Part shown: positions 1 through 24,105 of the stretch, one piece after another
Layout: every line of letters starts with the position of its first letter
How positions within the stretch are numbered: the first letter of the stretch is position 1
Virus genome (UHGV): UHGV-1546770
Origin: a virus
DNA length: 31,581 nt
Reading direction: 5' to 3' (one strand)
The notes under the pieces: generated by a model
What the model saw: only the letters and a program-made list of their open reading frames with translations
Told to the model about the DNA's origin: nothing
Databases searched by the model: none
Translations under genes and position numbers: made by a program

Positions 1-1
1 G

Positions 2-86
2 TGGGACAGGGGGTCGGATTCGAACCGACGTGAGCAAAGCTGGCGGCTTACAAAACCGCTCCAATCGACCACTATGGGACTCCTGC
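2..86 (-). tRNA. tRNA-like gene, type-II-like body (13-nt variable arm), anticodon loop UUUGUAA (UGU), encoded CCA
   Basis: Hand fold of minus strand: acceptor GCAGGAG/CCCCTGT (6 of 7 pairs), D-arm CCA-TAGTGGTCGAT-TGG, anticodon stem GCGGT/GCCGC, T-arm GTCGG-TTCGAAT-CCGAC, discriminator C plus CCA. Confidence 0.5.
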
Positions 87-164
87 AGATCTCTGTGTCT
101 TTCCACAGCGCCAGCTATGCTTTGTTTGGTGGCGGCGCGCGACGTGCATAGCATCCACATTTTT

Positions 165-235
165 CTAACGCAACTTGAATCGAACAAGTATCTCCCTCTG
201 ATAGTGAGGGCGCTTTCCCATTAAGCTATACGATA
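165..235 (-). tRNA. degenerate tRNA-like gene, anticodon loop ACUAUCA (C at position 33)
   Basis: Hand fold: acceptor TATCGTA/TGCGTTA (one T-T mismatch), D-arm GCTT-AATGGGA-AAGC, anticodon stem CCCTC/GAGGG, perfect T-arm ACTTG-TTCGATT-CAAGT; no CCA. Confidence 0.35.
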
Positions 236-292
236 ATATAATTTTAAACACTGGCAGGGCGGCGTATCCTGCATCTCAGATTCCCTATAAGA

Positions 293-350
293 GGAGCGTC
301 GGGAGCCTTTCCGACCTCAGTGTTTCATTTATGTTTCAACAACCGCTGAT
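293..350 (-). pseudogene. tRNA pseudogene fragment related to the 2-86 tRNA-like gene
   Basis: Minus strand AGCGGTTGTTGAAA...GTCGG-AAAGGCTC-CCGAC resembles the anticodon and T-arm of the 2-86 gene (same GTCGG/CCGAC stem) but the T-loop is degenerate and no acceptor pairing is found. Confidence 0.25.
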
Positions 351-481
351 GATTAGTAGCGATAAGCATTTATGCTTTGCTTAAAGCAGTTTCTGAGGAA
401 TTATATGAAAAAAATGCATCAAGTCGCTAATTTATATGCCGCCACACGACAGGTCGGCAATCTTTGTTGTTGACTTTAATT

Positions 482-572
482 TGGTCCCCCCGGAATGGAT
501 CGAACATTCATATACCTTGTGAGGGCCTCTCCGTTATAAGCAGAGGGCTATAACCAATTTAGCTACGAGGGG
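482..572 (-). tRNA. tRNA-like gene with ~19-nt variable region, anticodon loop CUUAUAA (UAU), encoded CCA
   Basis: Hand fold: acceptor CCCCTCG/CGGGGGG (7 pairs incl. one G-U), D-arm GCTA-AATTGGTTA-TAGC, anticodon stem CTCTG/CGGAG, T-arm GAATG-TTCGATC-CATTC, discriminator A plus CCA. Confidence 0.5.
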
Positions 573-760
573 AGATATTAATTTGCCGTCTTTCCGAGCT
601 GTCACCGTTTCTGCCGATTTGTAGGGTTCGTTCGAACAGTTTAAGCAACTTATCCCTTGGTAATGATAGCAAGCGAGGCCGCGTATGACCCCTAACAGAC
701 TTAAAAGTTACTGGTTCTATCTTCACTCAAATCTGACATTGTACGCTACTCACTATCATT

Positions 761-843
761 TGGTGGGCAGGGTGGGTGTCGAGCCCACTACCCCGAAGGA
801 ACGGATTTACAGTCCGCCGCGTTTGCCGATTCGCTACCTGCCC
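761..843 (-). tRNA. tRNA-Tyr (anticodon GTA), type II, encoded CCA
   Basis: Hand fold: perfect 7-bp acceptor GGGCAGG/CCTGCCC, D-arm GCG-AATCGGCAAA-CGC, anticodon loop CUGUAAA, 12-nt variable arm with CC-TTCG-GG hairpin, T-arm GTGGG-CTCGACA-CCCAC (C at position 54). Confidence 0.7.
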
Positions 844-854
844 ATATTTATTTG

Positions 855-930
855 GTTGCTGAAGCTCTGGAATTGAACCAGATTAAAACGACTTATGAGG
901 CCGCTTGAGATACCTACCTCCCACCAGCAA
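855..930 (-). tRNA. tRNA-like gene with Met/Ile2-type anticodon loop CUCAUAA (CAT); acceptor stem imperfect
   Basis: Canonical core GCGGC-CUCAUAA-GTCGT, 5-nt variable loop, T-arm TCTGG-TTCAATT-CCAGA; no clean 7-bp acceptor pairing found by hand, so possibly a pseudogene or a misfold. Confidence 0.4.
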
Positions 931-983
931 TATGTTGCAACTTTAGTATTTTATATAGGTCGTACAGTTGCCACAAAGACCTG

Positions 984-1060
984 TGGTACGCCACCTCGAA
1001 TTCGAATCGAGACTTGATGCATTTTGAGTGCATTTCCTCTGCCAATTGGGATAGTGGCGC
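984..1060 (-). tRNA. tRNA with anticodon CAA (Leu by anticodon) but type-I body with 5-nt variable loop, encoded CCA
   Basis: Hand fold: acceptor GCGCCAC/GTGGCGT (7 pairs incl. G-U), anticodon arm ATGCA-CTCAAAA-TGCAT, T-arm CTCGA-TTCGAAT-TCGAG, discriminator A plus CCA. Confidence 0.6.
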
Positions 1061-1071
1061 ATATTAAAGAA

Positions 1072-1145
1072 TGAAAACGATAAGACTTGAACCAATGTCT
1101 TCCTCGTTCGTAGCGAGGCACTCTATACAACTGAGTGACGCTTGC
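1072..1145 (-). tRNA. tRNA-Arg (anticodon ACG), partly degenerate
   Basis: Anticodon arm CCTCG-CTACGAA-CGAGG matches the canonical Arg-ACG loop; D-arm ACTC-AGTTGTATA-GAGT; T-arm ATTGG-TTCAAGT-CTTAT (one mismatch); acceptor GCAAGCG/CGTTTTC (one mismatch); no CCA. Confidence 0.5.
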
Positions 1146-1203
1146 ATATTTGACTCTTAGGTCAGTCAGCCACACATTACTTAACGCATTCCATTTGTTC
1201 GCG

Positions 1204-1290
1204 TGGTGCAGGTGAAGGGCCACGATCCCTCAATCCCATCTGGGCGACAGATTTTAAGTCTGTTCTGTATTCCAATTCCAGCACACCTGC
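1204..1290 (-). tRNA. tRNA-Leu (anticodon TAA), type II, encoded CCA
   Basis: Hand fold: perfect acceptor GCAGGTG/CACCTGC, D-arm CTG-GAATTGGAATA-CAG, anticodon arm ACAGA-CTTAAAA-TCTGT, 15-nt variable arm, T-arm GAGGG-ATCGTGG-CCCTT, discriminator A plus CCA. Confidence 0.65.
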
Positions 1291-1771
1291 ATATCAATGG
1301 GCAGTTTTCAGAGATACCCAGCTCTGCCAGTACTCAAAATTCTATCTATCTCACACATTAACCTATTTTCACATAAGGATGGCTACCATTCAGCCTTGTG
1401 GATAACCTATGGTCATTGAACTTGAAACCAAACCATTGCTCAAGGATTTTGTAAAACTTTGTGGGCACACAATTTTAATTAACAATTATCTAAAAGCCCT
1501 CTTTACAACTTTAAGACTTAAACTTTGACGAAAAAATAATCTTTGAGCATTGATCTCTGAACATTGATATTTAAACTTTAATCTTTACAGTTGAAAAATA
1601 TATGTACATCTTAATTTTAAGTCAATCCATATATTAACTTTCTTACTATATTATTAGCATTAGTAAAAATATTGTTGAAGACCAATTTTTTTATTATTTC
1701 ACATCAATGTATCGGTCAAAACCATCGAAGCAAGTCCGTTCTAGGTTTTCGAATGGCAGCAAGTTAGCTGC

Positions 1772-2428
1772 TTAATACTCGATATCAAGCACAGTTAGTG
1801 CGTTACTAACCGAAAGCGCCGCATCAACTTCAGTAATGAAACTAGAAATCTCATTGTCAAGCTGTTCAATGGCATCCTTGACACCAATAGGATCAATGAT
1901 GTCATAAGTGTTGTCCTTGATGTACTGAGCACGAAGATTCTTCATCGCTTCCGAATCAACAGCCATCTTAGAATCCTTCGGCTGTGCCTGAATGACACTA
2001 AGAACATAATTCTCTGCTCTCTTCTCAAGAGGATCACCACTGTTCTTATCAAGCTCATTCTTTGCTACAGCATACTGAGATTCAAGACACTTCTTAAATG
2101 TGTTCTTGAACTCCATCCCATGGTTCTTCATCTCAATTGCGGTAGCAACTGTGTATTCGTTGTCACCAACCTTAACCTTCGTTACTGCATTAGATGCAAC
2201 AACCGCCTTCTTGATTGCATTACGTCTTGCAATCAGATCAGACACCTTCTGGAAATCTGACTTCATGCTGTTCTTAAACTCATTAATGGTCACTCCATGA
2301 ATCTTCTCATTAGAATGCTTATTCGCAACTACAAACGTACCAGAACAAATCGCATTATTGATACGTGAATCAATAACCTTAAGTTCTGCAAGAGCCTTGT
2401 GGACTGTCATCTGTTCCTTCGTTGCCAT
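1772..2428 (-). CDS. hypothetical protein (218 aa)
   Basis: Intact minus-strand ORF; AAAAGGAG RBS before the ATG; last gene before the tRNA array; no recognisable motif. Confidence 0.6.
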   Translation of the reverse strand: MATKEQMTVHKALAELKVIDSRINNAICSGTFVVANKHSNEKIHGVTINEFKNSMKSDFQKVSDLIARRNAIKKAVVASNAVTKVKVGDNEYTVATAIEMKNHGMEFKNTFKKCLESQYAVAKNELDKNSGDPLEKRAENYVLSVIQAQPKDSKMAVDSEAMKNLRAQYIKDNTYDIIDPIGVKDAIEQLDNEISSFITEVDAALSVSNALTVLDIEY

Positions 2429-2602
2429 AATTCATAATCTCCTTTTAGTGATTTTTAATTATTAACTATAATTATGTACTATCTAGCGTGTTTACATATT
2501 ACCACATTACTTGTCATATGTCAAGTCCATCTTGTGGTTTTTCTTTTTATGTATTCAAGCGGCTCAATCAATCAAGTTGGCTCTCTCTTGACTACATTCT
2601 GA

Positions 2603-2631
2603 ATTATACCACAATAATTTCGTATTGTCAA
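2603..2631 (-). promoter_or_regulatory. sigma70-type promoter, exact consensus TTGACA-N17-TATAAT
   Basis: Minus strand TTGACA atacgaaattattgtgg TATAAT; the -35 hexamer overlaps the TGA stop of the upstream gene. Confidence 0.6.
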
Positions 2632-2972
2632 GGGGTATTTTCAAGAATTTCTACTGGAGTTTCAAATACACGACTGTTTAGTGCAATCAGATCTGCTCTA
2701 AACATATCAATTCGCTTATCAAAAGCACTATAATACTTCTTCATAAGCTTTTCCTTTGCAAGCATCTTACCCTTCTCCTCGTCGTACACATCACCTTTCG
2801 CAAGCTTGACCTTGACCTTAAACTGCTTAGGCATCATGTACTTCTCACGAATCATATAACAGTCAAACTCATTGAGAAACTTATCAATCTTATTAATTGC
2901 ATCAAGCTCAGTTCCTCTTAGAACAGCGAACGTTTCCTTCGTGTTTGGGTTGCTATAATACTGAATAGCCAT
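2628..2972 (-). CDS. hypothetical protein (114 aa)
   Basis: Intact ORF in the co-directional series; preceded by tandem promoters at 3032-3060 and 3114-3142. Confidence 0.6.
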   Translation of the reverse strand: MAIQYYSNPNTKETFAVLRGTELDAINKIDKFLNEFDCYMIREKYMMPKQFKVKVKLAKGDVYDEEKGKMLAKEKLMKKYYSAFDKRIDMFRADLIALNSRVFETPVEILENTP

Positions 2973-3031
2973 TTTTTCTTTTGTCCTTTCTTTTTTAAAT
3001 AATTTTTTATTGTCTTTTGACTTATGCTTGA

Positions 3032-3060
3032 ATTATACCATATGTTTTTCTGTTTGTCAA
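3032..3060 (-). promoter_or_regulatory. sigma70-type promoter, exact consensus TTGACA-N17-TATAAT
   Basis: Minus strand TTGACA aacagaaaaacatatgg TATAAT; tandem with the 3114-3142 promoter. Confidence 0.6.
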
Positions 3061-3113
3061 TATCTTTTTTCGTTTTTTTGAATCACATATTGACTTCTTT
3101 CAACTATGCTTGG

Positions 3114-3142
3114 ATTATATCACAATAATTTCTGTTTGTCAA
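3114..3142 (-). promoter_or_regulatory. sigma70-type promoter, exact consensus with TGn extended -10
   Basis: Minus strand TTGACA aacagaaattattgtga TATAAT; -35 overlaps the TGA stop of the 3139-3669 gene. Confidence 0.6.
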
Positions 3143-3669
3143 GTGGCACTTTTTAAATATGCCCTACTATTCGCAAGTAATCCAAGTAATTTTACGGCTG
3201 TATTACAAATACAATCTCCATCTTGCCACCACATACACTTCTCCTCTGAACACATCAACGTTTTTGACGACGTTGCAGTATCAGAAAGACAATAGCATAG
3301 TGGACAGTATTTTTTATCTTCCATGTCCGTCACCTCACATAAAAAATCAAAACTATCCATGAACTCATTATATTGTTCTACACAGCGCTCAAGACATGGA
3401 AAGTTATTAACTTCTTTCTTATATTGTTTTCCATAAAACTGCATATATGGCTGTCCAAACTCTTCATCAAGCACTAGCACATTATCAAAGTCATTCCAGT
3501 CAGAGATATCGTTTTTAAAGCAAATACTTACACTCAGCGCATGGTCAATACTCTTTGTTACATACCACGCCGCATCATGATTAATCCAGCTTCCGCCTTC
3601 TCTAAAATGTGCTTCAATAAGCTGCTCTTTAGTTGGCACATACTTAAGTTTATAGCTTTTTGCTTTCAT
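3139..3669 (-). CDS. hypothetical Cys-rich protein (176 aa)
   Basis: Intact ORF; start ATG overlaps the stop of the upstream ORF; C-terminal CPLCYC and CMWWQDGDCIC motifs. Confidence 0.6.
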   Translation of the reverse strand: MKAKSYKLKYVPTKEQLIEAHFREGGSWINHDAAWYVTKSIDHALSVSICFKNDISDWNDFDNVLVLDEEFGQPYMQFYGKQYKKEVNNFPCLERCVEQYNEFMDSFDFLCEVTDMEDKKYCPLCYCLSDTATSSKTLMCSEEKCMWWQDGDCICNTAVKLLGLLANSRAYLKSAT

Positions 3670-3893
3670 TATTTCACCTCATCCATCTTCGCGCCACAGT
3701 TGTGGCAGTAATTATGCGTATATTCTTGAGGGCATCCGCAATCGTTGCACCTATACTTCCACGACAGCCATGTTGCGATTTGATTTATTGCGTTCCAATT
3801 TCGGCGGCTGTTTGAGCCAATCCTCAACACCGTGTAAACATTTATTGAAACATTTCGGTGATTCGCACTCATTGATTTCTGCACAGCACTCAC
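3669..3893 (-). CDS. hypothetical zinc-ribbon protein (start uncertain)
   Basis: C-terminal CNDCGC...CHNCG motif; stop overlaps the start of 3139-3669; no RBS seen before either candidate start; overlaps 3751-4080 in another frame. Confidence 0.3.
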   Translation of the reverse strand: MSAVQKSMSANHRNVSINVYTVLRIGSNSRRNWNAINQIATWLSWKYRCNDCGCPQEYTHNYCHNCGAKMDEVK

Positions 3894-4080
3894 AAACAGT
3901 GGTCATTGATGCAATCCATGCAGCTAATTCCTCATCGCTCATCGCCCGGATGTGGTCGGCGTTGGTTCGCTTTTTCCTCCGGTACTCGCAAAAAGAAGCT
4001 GTGCATTCTCCTCTGATAAAATAAGTGCAATTTGTTTCTGCTTCTTCTGGTGTTCCAGCACCACATGTGTACTTAATCAC
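3751..4080 (-). CDS. hypothetical Cys-rich protein (109 aa)
   Basis: GTG start preceded by AAGGAG; multiple Cys (CECCAEINECESPKC). Confidence 0.45.
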   Translation of the reverse strand: MIKYTCGAGTPEEAETNCTYFIRGECTASFCEYRRKKRTNADHIRAMSDEELAAWIASMTTVCECCAEINECESPKCFNKCLHGVEDWLKQPPKLERNKSNRNMAVVEV

Positions 4081-4312
4081 TTGTACGCTCCTTAATAAAT
4101 TTTTCCCTGATTGCTTCTTTCTCTGGGTCTTCGTATGATGTCTGCCAATACGCTTGCAGCCATTGGATATGCCTTATTTCTTCGTCAGATAGCAAGTACA
4201 GATGATCCAAAACAACCTGTCTGCGCTTGTATCGGTCTGGATGGGCGTTCCCTGCATAGATGCACTGGCAGCTTTCATACTCACAGATTGGACACTTAGC
4301 CATTGTCAGCAC
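4073..4312 (-). CDS. hypothetical zinc-ribbon protein (79 aa)
   Basis: N-terminal CPICEYESCQC motif; intact ORF in series. Confidence 0.5.
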   Translation of the reverse strand: MLTMAKCPICEYESCQCIYAGNAHPDRYKRRQVVLDHLYLLSDEEIRHIQWLQAYWQTSYEDPEKEAIREKFIKERTSD

Positions 4313-10040: not shown

Positions 10041-11051
10041 TCAGTCTCCTTTACCTTTTAAACTATTTATATATCTATCTAACTCTTCTTGTGTGATATA
10101 TCCTTTTTCAATTGCATCTTCCGCATACAACCAATGCAATGCCTCGCCTGTTTGTGGATGTTTATACGTATAATTTTGTTTACCTCTACAGCACTTTGTA
10201 ATAGAGCTTGGATCACATCCATATAAATTTTGTACTTCTTTTGCTCCCCAAAAAATTTGATTTAATTCTATACAATATATTCTTCTACATTTCCACCAAT
10301 TACTACCTTTACGAGAATCACTCATCTTTTTCTTTGCTTCTTCTGTGTGATGTTTCCCATACATTGGATGATTGCTTGGATTTATAAATCTTTCTTTTGC
10401 TTTTTCTGATAGATTTAATTTTTGTTCATCTGACAATTTTTTACCTAAACTGGGATGTTGTTTTCCTATCCATATATGTTTGCCTTTAGTTGTTGGATTT
10501 GCCCAATATAATTTATGTTTTTCATACCATTGTTTATATGTTTCTTCATCCATGCGTTCTTTTGGAGAAACTTTAAACTGTGGATTATTCTCGCCTACTA
10601 ATCCTGCTCTTCCATACATTGGATGATTATTTGGATCTGAAAGTCTTTCTTTTGCAGCTTTTGATATCTTTTTTCTTGTTTCTTTACTTGGAGTCCATCC
10701 TTGCGTTGTTCCTCCACCATAAACAAGATTATACCAATTGTTAGATTCAACAGCATTAAAGAAAACACTATAATTATATTCCATTTCATTTAATTCTTCT
10801 GCAGAATAAGCAATATCAATTACATTTCTTACAAAATTTTCTTTTCCATATTTGTCAATTGCTTGTTTAAATGCTGCACCACTACCAAGATATTCTTGCC
10901 AATTTCCATAGAATTTTCTTTGGCCTAAATATCTTTTGCCATCAATCAAATTCGTTGTGATATAAATAAATCCATATGGATCTTTTACTTCCGTATATGT
11001 TGTATCTTGTAGCCCATCAACGGAAGAATTCATTTCTTTTAATTCTTCCAT
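10041..11051 (-). CDS. GIY-YIG homing endonuclease with NUMOD3 repeats and NUMOD1-like HTH
   Basis: N-terminal YGFIYITTNLIDGKRYLGQ (GIY-YIG), repeated NHPMYG...K..S motifs, C-terminal ELNQIFWGAKEVQNLYGCDPSSITKCCRGK helix-turn-helix. Confidence 0.7.
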   Translation of the reverse strand: MEELKEMNSSVDGLQDTTYTEVKDPYGFIYITTNLIDGKRYLGQRKFYGNWQEYLGSGAAFKQAIDKYGKENFVRNVIDIAYSAEELNEMEYNYSVFFNAVESNNWYNLVYGGGTTQGWTPSKETRKKISKAAKERLSDPNNHPMYGRAGLVGENNPQFKVSPKERMDEETYKQWYEKHKLYWANPTTKGKHIWIGKQHPSLGKKLSDEQKLNLSEKAKERFINPSNHPMYGKHHTEEAKKKMSDSRKGSNWWKCRRIYCIELNQIFWGAKEVQNLYGCDPSSITKCCRGKQNYTYKHPQTGEALHWLYAEDAIEKGYITQEELDRYINSLKGKGD

Positions 11052-19932: not shown

Positions 19933-20349
19933 TTAACCGAAATAAGTACCAACAATATGACAAATATGTTTTCTATAGTCGAAATCATTGGGAAAATATT
20001 TATTGAACTTATTTCTAAATTCGCTTTCAAGTTCTTCCATATTTGCATATGCAGTTTTGAACAAAGTGCCATAATTTTGTGTCGGTACATAATAGATCGT
20101 ATCGTCATTATATGCTTCACTGGAATTATAATCGTCGTTTCCGTTGTCATCAATTACCATTGCTTCGCCAGTAAATCCACTGATATACTCTATGACTCCT
20201 TCTTCGTACAATGCATCATTAAAGCTATATTCGTCATCATTATATTTCTCTTCTGTGTATTCTCTATAATACTTTGAACAAATAGTTTTCAACATCTCCC
20301 TTGTCATCACAAGACCGTAATCATTAACTGCATAATATCTCATACTCAT
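19933..20349 (-). CDS. hypothetical protein (138 aa)
   Basis: AAAGGAGG RBS before the ATG; acidic, Tyr-rich. Confidence 0.55.
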   Translation of the reverse strand: MSMRYYAVNDYGLVMTREMLKTICSKYYREYTEEKYNDDEYSFNDALYEEGVIEYISGFTGEAMVIDDNGNDDYNSSEAYNDDTIYYVPTQNYGTLFKTAYANMEELESEFRNKFNKYFPNDFDYRKHICHIVGTYFG

Positions 20350-22694: not shown

Positions 22695-22784
22695 AAAATC
22701 ATGCTCCTTAAATATTCATTATTTACACACTAATCACAATGTAGTTTCATTTGTTTTTTATCCTTTCTAATAAGGGCTGGAGCA

Positions 22785-23762
22785 TTAAGCTCCAACCCCA
22801 ACCTTTGCGTTAATCAGCTTGACGAACTCGTCCATCCATGCATGACCATCCATAATCTTTCCCCACCGGTTTTCTTCATAGTTTGCAGTGTTTCTGTTCG
22901 GAGCGCTATGACCAATCATATCACTCATCGCATTCACAGCGCCCCATGCAGTTCCTTTGAACTTAGCAATATCGGGCATGAAGTAGCAGATAGAATAGTT
23001 ATCTTTTACTTTCTGAATGTTTGCTTTCTTGCGATCAGAATCATTTTCCGTTACAGGGAACATCTGGTCAAGGATTTCATTGATCTGCTCAAAGTCAAGT
23101 TTGATATTCGCAAGTCTATCTGCCTCTTCGTCAAGTGCATCCATATAAAGATTTGCCATGCCCAAACAATGTCTCGCTTCTTCAAGCTTCTCGTCAAGAT
23201 TCCCAATATGCTTTGTGCTCCAAGAACGCTGAGCAGTATTGAGTGCAAGTGAGAGAGTATTATTGCAAACGACTCGAATTGGAGTCATGCCAATCTTGAT
23301 CGCTCCAGTTCCGTCATGAGAATTAGAGAACACCATATAAGGTTCCACATCATCATCAAGCACTTTCTTAGTCGGCATCTTTGCAAGCAGCCAAACTCTT
23401 TTCCCTCCGTTGAGAGAACCTGCGGTTTCATAGCGAACAATTCCATCTTCCGTTTCACCAACAATTGCATCAGTGAAAGAAAATGCGTCTACATTCTGTA
23501 CAATTTTATATCTATTCGTTACAATGCCAAGCACAGTTTTATCATCACTTCTGATGTTTGCTTTGTAGTTCTTGATTTCCGTTCCATCATCCATAAAGAC
23601 AGGAGTCTGTTCAACAGTCCAATCAAGCCCTGCCAGTTTGAGCGCTTCTGCACTGTTGGGAGCATCCGCAAGGATTTTGCATCTATCCTGCGTCTCCATA
23701 TAATGCCAAGGTTTCTCGCGTACACTAAACATGCTGTCGTTCATTTCAATGCAATGAGCCAT
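22785..23762 (-). CDS. DUF932 / TIGR03299-like phage-plasmid protein (start trimmed from track ORF 22785-23882)
   Basis: Motif MVFSNSHDGTGAIKIGMTPIRVVCNNTL matches the family signature as recalled from memory; internal ATG at 23760-23762 preceded by AAAGGAG. Confidence 0.55.
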   Translation of the reverse strand: MAHCIEMNDSMFSVREKPWHYMETQDRCKILADAPNSAEALKLAGLDWTVEQTPVFMDDGTEIKNYKANIRSDDKTVLGIVTNRYKIVQNVDAFSFTDAIVGETEDGIVRYETAGSLNGGKRVWLLAKMPTKKVLDDDVEPYMVFSNSHDGTGAIKIGMTPIRVVCNNTLSLALNTAQRSWSTKHIGNLDEKLEEARHCLGMANLYMDALDEEADRLANIKLDFEQINEILDQMFPVTENDSDRKKANIQKVKDNYSICYFMPDIAKFKGTAWGAVNAMSDMIGHSAPNRNTANYEENRWGKIMDGHAWMDEFVKLINAKVGVGA

Positions 23763-23994
23763 AATTCTTATCTCCTTTAACAAAATACATATTGATTCTT
23801 GCTTTTCTTGCTTTTCTTTTTTTCTTTTTTGCCGCACGCTGTTTCCAAACAGGATGGTCTGGGTACATTTCAAAACAATCACATTGTTTTTGCAAGCATC
23901 TTTTTCGTTCTACTTGATTCCATGTCGCTCCCTTGTCATGAAAATGGCAGTAACCACACACATTGTCGCTTTCTGACCCATACAAGCAAAGCAT
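23746..23994 (-). CDS. hypothetical zinc-ribbon protein with basic tail (82 aa)
   Basis: AAAAGGAGG RBS; CGYCHFHD...CDCF motifs and a KKKKRKARKAR stretch; 17-nt overlap with the downstream gene. Confidence 0.5.
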   Translation of the reverse strand: MLCLYGSESDNVCGYCHFHDKGATWNQVERKRCLQKQCDCFEMYPDHPVWKQRAAKKKKRKARKARINMYFVKGDKNYGSLH

Positions 23995-24105
23995 TATATA
24001 CCTCCTTTTCTTTGCAATATTTTTGTATTGTATAAGACAAGGTGCAAAAGCCTCATCTTCCTTAACGACTCTTATATCAAGAACAGATGTTTCTTATAAA
24101 TCATT

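Follow-up and report, generated by a model that had tools for sequence, protein, structure and literature searches.

Probable neighbourhood by descent of a DUF932 gene and a small Cys/His-rich protein gene in one phage lineage

The DUF932/TIGR03299 gene and the small Cys/His-rich protein gene that adjoin each other in the DNA analysed here (a stretch of 31,581 nucleotides, hereafter the window) appear, on the strength of a two-way survey of relatives, to be neighbours by descent within one phage lineage and not a conserved working pair. The explanation towards which we lean, if only by a little, is that they are two separate accessory or early genes on one transcript, adjacent only in this phage lineage, neither of which needs the other. 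On phages, plasmids and integrative elements, DUF932 ranks among the most common families still lacking characterisation, and a firm partner would be a useful handle on its function. The adjoining zinc protein is not such a conserved partner, and this lead for DUF932 is removed. At this locus a DUF932 member stands beside a small protein whose family is unannotated. Two things give the locus its main residual value: this small family, with its confidently predicted, new-looking fold and its possible EsV-1-7 connection, and the cassette behaviour of DUF932.

The window is part of a phage of about 150 kb, an assignment made because it carries a tRNA cluster and genes for a DnaB-like helicase, a Sak4-like protein and a tail-fibre protein; near-identical loci were found on IMG/VR contigs of 130-160 kb. 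All its sizeable ORFs lie on the minus strand, with a GC content of about 35%. In the direction of transcription, an M28-like peptidase gene comes first; after it stand many small genes without known function in a long array, then genes for a tyrosine recombinase, an SSB-like protein, a GIY-YIG/NUMOD3 homing endonuclease, a Sak4-like ATPase and a DnaB-like helicase, and finally a tail-fibre-like gene and the tRNA cluster. The pair sits within the small-gene array, and some 9 kb separate it from the replication module downstream (features of the locus are given in Table 1). The DUF932 copy of the window belongs to a branch from phages of about 150-170 kb in gut or rumen metagenomes, and GenBank phages yielded no megablast match to the 8 kb surrounding the locus. 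It can be hypothesised that the setting is that of a ~150-kb phage infecting gut or rumen Clostridia.

Table 1. Coordinates of the features at the DUF932/small-gene locus (positions in the window)
Feature	Position	Strand	Remarks
DUF932/TIGR03299 protein gene	22785-23762	(-)	325 aa, stop codon included; profile matches, homologue lengths, dN/dS
Shine-Dalgarno of DUF932, AAAGGAG	23772-23778	(-)	inside the extended tail of the small ORF; kept in relatives without the small ORF upstream (L021)
N-S-H-D-G codons (residues 147-151)	23310-23324	(-)	core DUF932 motif; H149, D150 and G151 invariant in alignment A4
R-V-V-C-N-N codons (residues 163-168)	23259-23276	(-)	second DUF932 motif; R163, C166 and N168 invariant in alignment A4
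Stem-loop GGGGUUGGAGC-UUAAU-GCUCCAGCCC	22774-22799	(-)	lies across the DUF932 stop codon; 3' boundary of the cassette
Small Cys/His-rich basic protein gene	23746-23994	(-)	82 aa; ORF with Shine-Dalgarno, dN/dS, family, AF2 model
Shine-Dalgarno of the small gene, AAAGGAGG	24001-24008	(-)	6 nt before ATG 23994
Overlap of the small gene and DUF932	23746-23762	(-)	17 nt; variant A only

The assignment of the larger protein to DUF932/TIGR03299, made in an earlier note on this DNA from a signature of the form NSHDG...RVVCNN, is corroborated by the profile searches, and both halves of that signature are present in the protein. Pfam PF06067 (DUF932) matched at E 7.1e-57 with 193.2 bits (cut-off 23) over profile positions 1-216 of 227, the NCBIfam model TIGR03299 at E 4.5e-64 with 216.6 bits against a curated cut-off of 110.7 (model positions 2-289 of 312), and phrog_1221 (PHROG 1221, function unknown) at E 4e-80. 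PF06067 also matches 35 of 35 members of alignment A4, a set of 35 DUF932 sequences with identity down to 44%, in which the invariant residues outside the two motifs include R179, W181, H185, D264, D281 and H285. Weak Pfam side-matches among these members, to DUF5995 (3 of 35) and to RIP (3 of 35, E 0.03), were judged to be due to chance. The gene shows dN/dS of 0.04-0.11 against its relatives. Homologues occur in 589 GenBank phage records and 122 plasmid records, the best GenBank phage match being 45% identical to the window protein, and every GenBank phage homologue listed with an annotation is a hypothetical protein. The earlier statement that the family has no established function thus agrees with these annotations, and no such function was found in the literature searched. 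The N-terminal half of the protein appears beta-rich and the C-terminal half helical. Its AF2 model, for which 20 homologues (67-94% identical) were used, was poor, with a pLDDT of 52.5; the Foldseek matches to this model were all noise (Hsp70, CRABP and SMC heads among them), and single-sequence and profile searches against PDB sequences gave coiled-coil noise and no related solved structure.

The mechanical ORF list places the start of DUF932 further out, at GTG 23882, which would give a protein of 365 aa. The true start is evidently ATG 23762, since the sequence AAAGGAG lies just before it and homologues are 320-326 aa long and begin with MAHCIE. Both ORFs described earlier are therefore present on the minus strand, and the small one overlaps the start of DUF932 by 17 nt. 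The small protein contains the C13-x2-C16 pair and a KKKKRKARKAR tract, and its gene exists in relatives as three alleles, A being window-like (82 aa) and B and C encoding 67-68 aa at roughly 45-57% identity to A. Substitutions are mostly synonymous, with dN/dS of 0.07-0.14 among B and C and of 0.2-0.6 for A against B or C, and the small ORF is a genuine gene under purifying selection. A phmmer search against 1.84 billion cluster representatives gave 151 clusters at E<=1e-3, mostly of 60-110 aa, and a protein search with the family profile gave 14 proteins, the contexts of six of which were examined and proved to be other neighbourhoods. The protein is a member of an unannotated phage protein family. 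The absence of any Pfam (E<=0.01), NCBIfam or PHROG match, and of any tblastn match in GenBank phages, could be taken to mean that the frame is open by chance, or is part of a leader, and is no gene at all; this is extremely improbable, given the strong Shine-Dalgarno sequence before it, the low dN/dS among the B and C alleles, the 151 clusters with six near-invariant residues and a structural model predicted with high confidence.

The overlap itself is a derived by-product of an indel at the 3' end of the small gene, because alleles B and C stop before the DUF932 ATG and A bypasses that stop. The B and C small genes terminate with a TAA within the DUF932 Shine-Dalgarno sequence, 15 nt before the ATG, so that there is no overlap. 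In A, a 1-2-nt indel just before the position of the B/C stop shifts the frame past the TAA and adds 11 residues, crossing the Shine-Dalgarno sequence and the first five DUF932 codons; the TGA of the small gene (23748-23746) consequently lies 14 nt into the DUF932 coding sequence. Ribosome hand-over from the small gene to DUF932 is plausible for every allele, since stop and start lie within 15 nt of each other in all of them, the distance in loci with the adjacent pair being -17 or +15 nt. Such hand-over is neither required nor conserved in form. The same DUF932 Shine-Dalgarno sequence and start are kept where another gene lies upstream (L021), and the view of the two proteins as co-translated partners, which had been based on the overlap, is not supported: the overlap is absent from variants B and C, and DUF932 has a conserved ribosome-binding site of its own. 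A promoter and terminator scan around the pair gave nothing above shuffled expectation.

The question of partnership was addressed from both sides. From the DUF932 side, 80 viral loci were surveyed in which DUF932 is 42-100% identical to the window copy. A small-family gene lies directly upstream in 25 of them, all within the clade in which DUF932 is at least 75% identical, and at 1.9 kb in one more; in the remaining 54 there is no member within 6 kb. The upstream neighbours are otherwise nearly all different. Two of the 25 adjacent small genes are disrupted, by a stop (L008/L076) and by a frameshift (L020/L088), with DUF932 intact in both. From the other side, small-family genes were located with a degenerate DNA pattern for the C-H-C-C-H-W signature; in viral contigs the family HMM confirmed 118 of its 120 matches, which puts the specificity of the pattern at about 98%. 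DUF932 lies directly downstream in 16 of the 118 viral loci, all of the window clade, and at 3.4-11.6 kb in a further five, and the downstream neighbours of the viral small-family genes belong to 31 families. In bacterial genomes, taken as one per species and with 38 of 43 pattern matches confirmed, DUF932 was found within about 4 kb in none of the 38. The expectation that the small ORF would be conserved together with DUF932 therefore fails outside one clade.

It could nevertheless be proposed that the two proteins are functional partners, a small zinc-binding basic protein and DUF932 acting as a complex, or as a targeting subunit and its enzyme, produced in fixed proportion through translational coupling. 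The 25 loci in which the genes lie adjacent on the same strand, with the narrow stop/start spacing described above, are in accordance with this proposition, as is the preservation of the adjacency across three diverged small-gene alleles while the genes downstream vary (at least seven types within the clade). We consider it quite unlikely, since the pair is missing from most DUF932 loci, and DUF932 is not adjacent in 102 of the 118 viral loci of the small family, nor beside any of its 38 bacterial-genome copies. Two sister phages (L203 and L214) hold both genes 7-10 kb apart in reversed order, with DUF932 upstream of the small gene; one relative, L290, retains a small gene without DUF932, and L008 and L020 retain DUF932 with a broken small ORF. 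Furthermore, the Shine-Dalgarno sequence of DUF932 is conserved even where the small gene is missing, and no fusion of the two domains occurs among the 150 best members of the small family. The preferred reading of neighbours by descent is substantiated by the same comparisons, as the two-way survey and L290 establish that either gene can be present where the other is missing, close relatives included. The persistence of the small gene upstream of DUF932 across alleles A, B and C, at roughly 45-57% identity, could reflect selection for linkage instead of descent. Between carriers of A and B, dN is 0.32 for the small gene versus 0.02 for DUF932, and this divergence of the small gene would fit allelic replacement by recombination in a mosaic region. 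A mobile cassette made of both genes was suggested by a drop in nucleotide identity on both sides of the pair and was ruled out, as the 137-aa gene further upstream is kept in 24 of the 26 clade loci and the unit of insertion or deletion is DUF932 alone.

DUF932 is a self-contained single-gene cassette, with its own conserved ribosome-binding site and 3' stem-loop, that is gained or lost between AAAGGAGA repeats. The comparison that demonstrates this involves L290, a phage fragment that is collinear with the loci of the window clade; it was binned with an Acutalibacteraceae genome, which suggests a host of this family, and, as a binned metagenome contig, it is a single example of the absence of DUF932. 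Its gene order comprises a 140-aa gene, homologous to the 137-aa gene further upstream, a coiled-coil gene, a small gene of the B/C type and then the gene that follows DUF932 in L022/L090. BLAST alignment with the clade leaves a clean gap of about 1005 bp, which corresponds to DUF932 plus its 3' hairpin, and on either side of this gap stands a copy of the AAAGGAGA ribosome-binding motif, the same motif that is carried by the Shine-Dalgarno region of DUF932. The stem-loop across the stop codon, with a folding energy of -22 kcal/mol (z -3.83), is matched by none of 200 shuffled sequences, shows compensatory changes at two pairs among close relatives and, in L290, is missing along with the gene. 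A U-tract is lacking, and the scan for terminators did not pick the stem-loop up. More distant DUF932 genes often have GC-rich hairpins downstream.

The gene recurs in entry-proximal small-gene arrays of phages, linear plasmids and conjugative elements. On Streptomyces linear plasmids, DUF932 genes lie 1-5 kb from an end; in Streptomyces phages they are found in the terminal repeat, beside Lsr2-like and ParB-like genes; in Mycobacterium phage Baee, DUF932 is the eighth gene from the right end; and in pHG1 it stands beside the PRTRC cassette. We hypothesise that DUF932 is an enzyme-like protein acting soon after DNA entry, whose target would be either the DNA of the element itself or a host factor or defence. 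A stand-alone function of this kind, exerted early on DNA or against a host factor, is put forward with low confidence; it is suggested by the entry-proximal position of the genes and by invariant polar residues (H149-D150, R163, C166, N168, R179, H185, D264, D281, H285), the early or establishment timing being read from gene position only. The autonomy of the gene and its recurrence near the entering end narrow the hypotheses to a stand-alone early function.

A different purpose for the same cassette would be that of moron-type cargo, whereby DUF932 benefits the host or excludes competitors, through defence or superinfection exclusion, and does not serve the phage's own establishment. The anatomy of the cassette, with its own Shine-Dalgarno sequence and 3' stem-loop, and its presence/absence polymorphism are features that such cargo would share. 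According to a preprint, moreover, a DUF932 gene on an integrated plasmid of Variovorax repeatedly gained start-codon and missense mutations under phage selection, from which the authors deduced a role in phage defence (10.1101/2025.06.20.660599). The selection observed in Variovorax is for loss of the gene, however, which fits a function exploited by the phage equally well. PADLOC gave no match for DUF932, the small protein or their neighbours, the promoter scan detected no promoter belonging to DUF932, and the gene is common among lytic actinophages, in whose early arrays it lies. Cargo of this type consequently appears unlikely to us.

Turning to the small protein, the signature of its family reads [GA]-[YF]-C16-x2-H19-x13-C33-L-x-K-x-C38-x8-H47-P-[YF]-W50, followed by a Lys/Arg-rich segment. 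The conservation of C16 (97%), H19 (91%), C33 (99%), C38 (99%) and H47 (90%), alongside W50 (96%), is the reason why the protein very probably binds metal. The residues point to a single metal site, presumably occupied by one zinc ion and most likely formed by C16, H19, C33 and C38. The earlier description of a basic CxxC zinc-ribbon protein is thus upheld as regards a Cys-rich, basic and very probably metal-binding protein, but not as regards the ribbon, since no more than 41% of members retain C13, with which the CxxC begins, and the module is not a two-knuckle ribbon. In the AF2 model, built from 72 family members (pLDDT 92.6), residues 1-47, the predicted metal-binding module, form short beta-hairpins and a short helix, and residues 48-78 form a single long basic helix; confidence is low for the 11 C-terminal residues that the overlap encodes. 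Foldseek comparison of this model with PDB and BFVD yielded best matches only at E>0.9 and TM<0.4, and the weak matches are all small zinc modules (UPF1 CH domain, ZZ, B-box). The family profile found no match among PDB sequences. With this confident predicted fold, the protein defines an unannotated family that is a candidate for inclusion in protein-family databases.

We propose that the small protein would be a zinc-stabilised nucleic-acid-binding protein that binds through its basic helix, as its conserved residues and charge suggest. Such a role is indicated by the helix itself, by fusions to DEDDh exonucleases and by the frequent position of the gene beside replication genes. Some members are fused to an RNase_T/DEDDh exonuclease, an arrangement common in Treponema genomes, and one is fused to a Bro-N domain; the annotated neighbours of the family are replication proteins, namely DNA polymerase A with an SNF2 helicase, a polymerase III delta-like protein and a VapE primase-helicase. 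One could also imagine that the small protein regulates transcription or translation of the local operon, for instance by binding the DUF932 mRNA or the hairpin at its stop codon, in which case the adjacency would be regulatory. A small basic protein with predicted metal binding, encoded at the head of the unit, and a conserved RNA stem-loop at the end of DUF932 would suit such a regulator. We regard it as very unlikely, given that the family precedes many unrelated genes and is fused to exonucleases in Treponema, and that L290 has the small gene with neither DUF932 nor the hairpin.

Comparison with known systems places the two genes separately. The window protein is a full-length match to all three profiles of DUF932/TIGR03299 (PHROG 1221), well above the curated cut-offs, it possesses the H-D-G and R-x-x-C-x-N motifs, and its gene belongs to a mobile element, where small genes without known function surround it; no essential difference was found, and in the window clade the gene has in addition a stem-loop across its stop codon. 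As a genetic unit, DUF932 resembles phage morons and the single-gene accessory cassettes of mosaic early regions, in that it is inserted or deleted alone between collinear genes, its junctions fall at short repeats at gene boundaries and it bears a 3' stem-loop. It differs from them in having no detected promoter of its own and in a stem-loop that lacks the U-tract of an intrinsic terminator. The small protein shares with the classical zinc ribbon a Cys-rich beta-hairpin module and, in the window copy, one CxxC. The ribbon, by contrast, has two CxxC knuckles, whereas the small family conserves C-x2-H, C-x4-C and an extra His; of the C13-x2-C16 pair, C16 alone is conserved (97% vs 41%), and the second half-site is C33-x4-C38 and not CxxC. 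The confident model showed no significant fold match to known zinc ribbons in PDB and BFVD (E>3).

A more distant parallel is offered by a repeat rich in cysteine, EsV-1-7 (PF19114), known from phaeoviruses and from IMM-type proteins of brown algae. Residues 5-40 of the small protein align with one such repeat across a repeat boundary, with the common pattern [YF]G-x8-YC-x2-H-K-x10-K-[KR]-C-L-x3-C, and the phmmer search of the window protein against 1.84 billion sequences retrieved a six-repeat EsV-1-7 protein at E 3.6e-7, a value summed over the six repeats. The family profile gave only 26 bits to the EsV-1-7 repeat protein, the hhalign probability was 63.6%, and the Pfam model PF19114 matched neither the window protein nor its 72 relatives. 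The spacing also differs, being C-x4-C-x16-C-x2-H in the repeats, while the small protein has the same half-sites permuted, with C-x2-H before C-x4-C; its module is present as a single copy in a shifted register, and it adds an H-P-x-W motif and the basic helix, which are absent from the repeats. It is conceivable, although we hold it to be rather doubtful, that the 82-aa protein represents a widespread, undescribed family of phages and prophages of Clostridia and Treponema, whose one Cys-His-Cys-Cys zinc module would share ancestry with the EsV-1-7 repeat. If this homology were true, an enigmatic repeat of eukaryotes and NCLDV would gain a relative in prokaryotic viruses, in a tractable context, and the basic helix, the exonuclease fusions and the replication-gene neighbourhoods of the small family would point to nucleic-acid binding as the ancestral activity.

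The DUF932 gene and the small Cys/His-rich ORF that overlaps its start do not share the same state in all close relatives of the window. The small ORF is broken in two of them, IMG/VR contigs 3300045988_121622 (L008/L076) and 3300045988_118861 (L020/L088), by an in-frame stop at codon 35 in one and by a frameshift in an A-run in the other, and the DUF932 gene beside both lesions is intact and 97% identical. These broken ORFs could be either real pseudogenes or assembly errors. The Lys tract of the small ORF holds a heptamer identical to the dnaX -1 slippery site, lying in the zero frame. Reading the sequence by eye, a -1 shift at this point would terminate at the TAA within the DUF932 Shine-Dalgarno motif, which is the stop of small-gene alleles B and C. 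We consider the heptamer to be probably a by-product of Lys-rich coding.

Features located in the window
Feature	Window position	Strand	Basis
tRNA cluster and skipping-rope RNA	1-1300	(-)	ARAGORN, Rfam
Skipping-rope RNA (RF02924)	246-325	(-)	Rfam, 77.9 bits vs gathering score 36.7
GIY-YIG (SegE-like) and NUMOD3 homing-endonuclease gene	10041-11051	(-)	
138-aa acidic protein gene	19933-20349	(-)	
A_AAA_AAG heptamer, zero frame, in Lys tract of small ORF	23824-23830	(-)	sequence
EsV-1-7-like stretch of small protein, residues 5-40	23875-23982	(-)	comparison with P0176, a 530-aa protein

Local gene shuffling is illustrated by the 138-aa acidic protein, a homologue of which is encoded directly upstream of DUF932 in phages (L024-L027) with a DUF932 protein 65-67% identical, the gene of the window being situated 3.4 kb further downstream. 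Elsewhere, the homing-endonuclease gene sits inside the replication module, between the genes for a Sak4-like ATPase and an SSB-like protein. Seven tRNAs (Thr-tgt, Ile-tat, Tyr-ata, Tyr-gta, Met-cat, Leu-caa and Leu-taa) were predicted by ARAGORN at the window start, four of which were confirmed by Rfam. As regards the host, a 24-kb contig collinear with the phage clade of the window (L290, CAVABC010000046.1, JGI/GTDB) was binned with an Acutalibacteraceae bacterium, which hints at a host in this family, or else at a binning artefact. In three other replicons, the DUF932 gene lies at most a few kb from an end: a Streptomyces plasmid (L148, NZ_CP109358.1), Streptomyces phage Jay2Jay (L150) and Mycobacterium phage Baee (L151), where DUF932 is gene no. 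8 counted from the right end. Among the matches listed, most Streptomyces linear plasmids carry DUF932 at a distance of 1-5 kb from one of their ends. The Streptomyces phages have it in the terminal repeat, in two copies, adjoined by Lsr2-like and ParB-like nuclease genes.

The module of the small family is also found as the N-terminus of ~400-aa proteins (L282, L285, L287, L289, L299, L301, L302, L308, L310, L312 and L313), whose genome bins are mainly Treponema or other Spirochaetes, with single Lachnospiraceae, Desulfovibrionaceae and Bacteroidaceae bins. The same architecture is exhibited by the proteins P0208 and P0239, both of which have an RNase_T/DEDDh exonuclease as central domain. 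In two ENA contigs (L064/L065, positions 1-4279), a small-family member follows a 1013-aa PF05183 (RdRP-type) protein and two unknown proteins, and adjoins a HindVP-type restriction-modification locus with Vsr. The cysteine-rich repeat EsV-1-7 (PF19114) occurs in giant viruses and brown algae. The metal module of the small protein resembles one such repeat in a shifted register, a likeness whose statistics hint at a possible kinship between the two.
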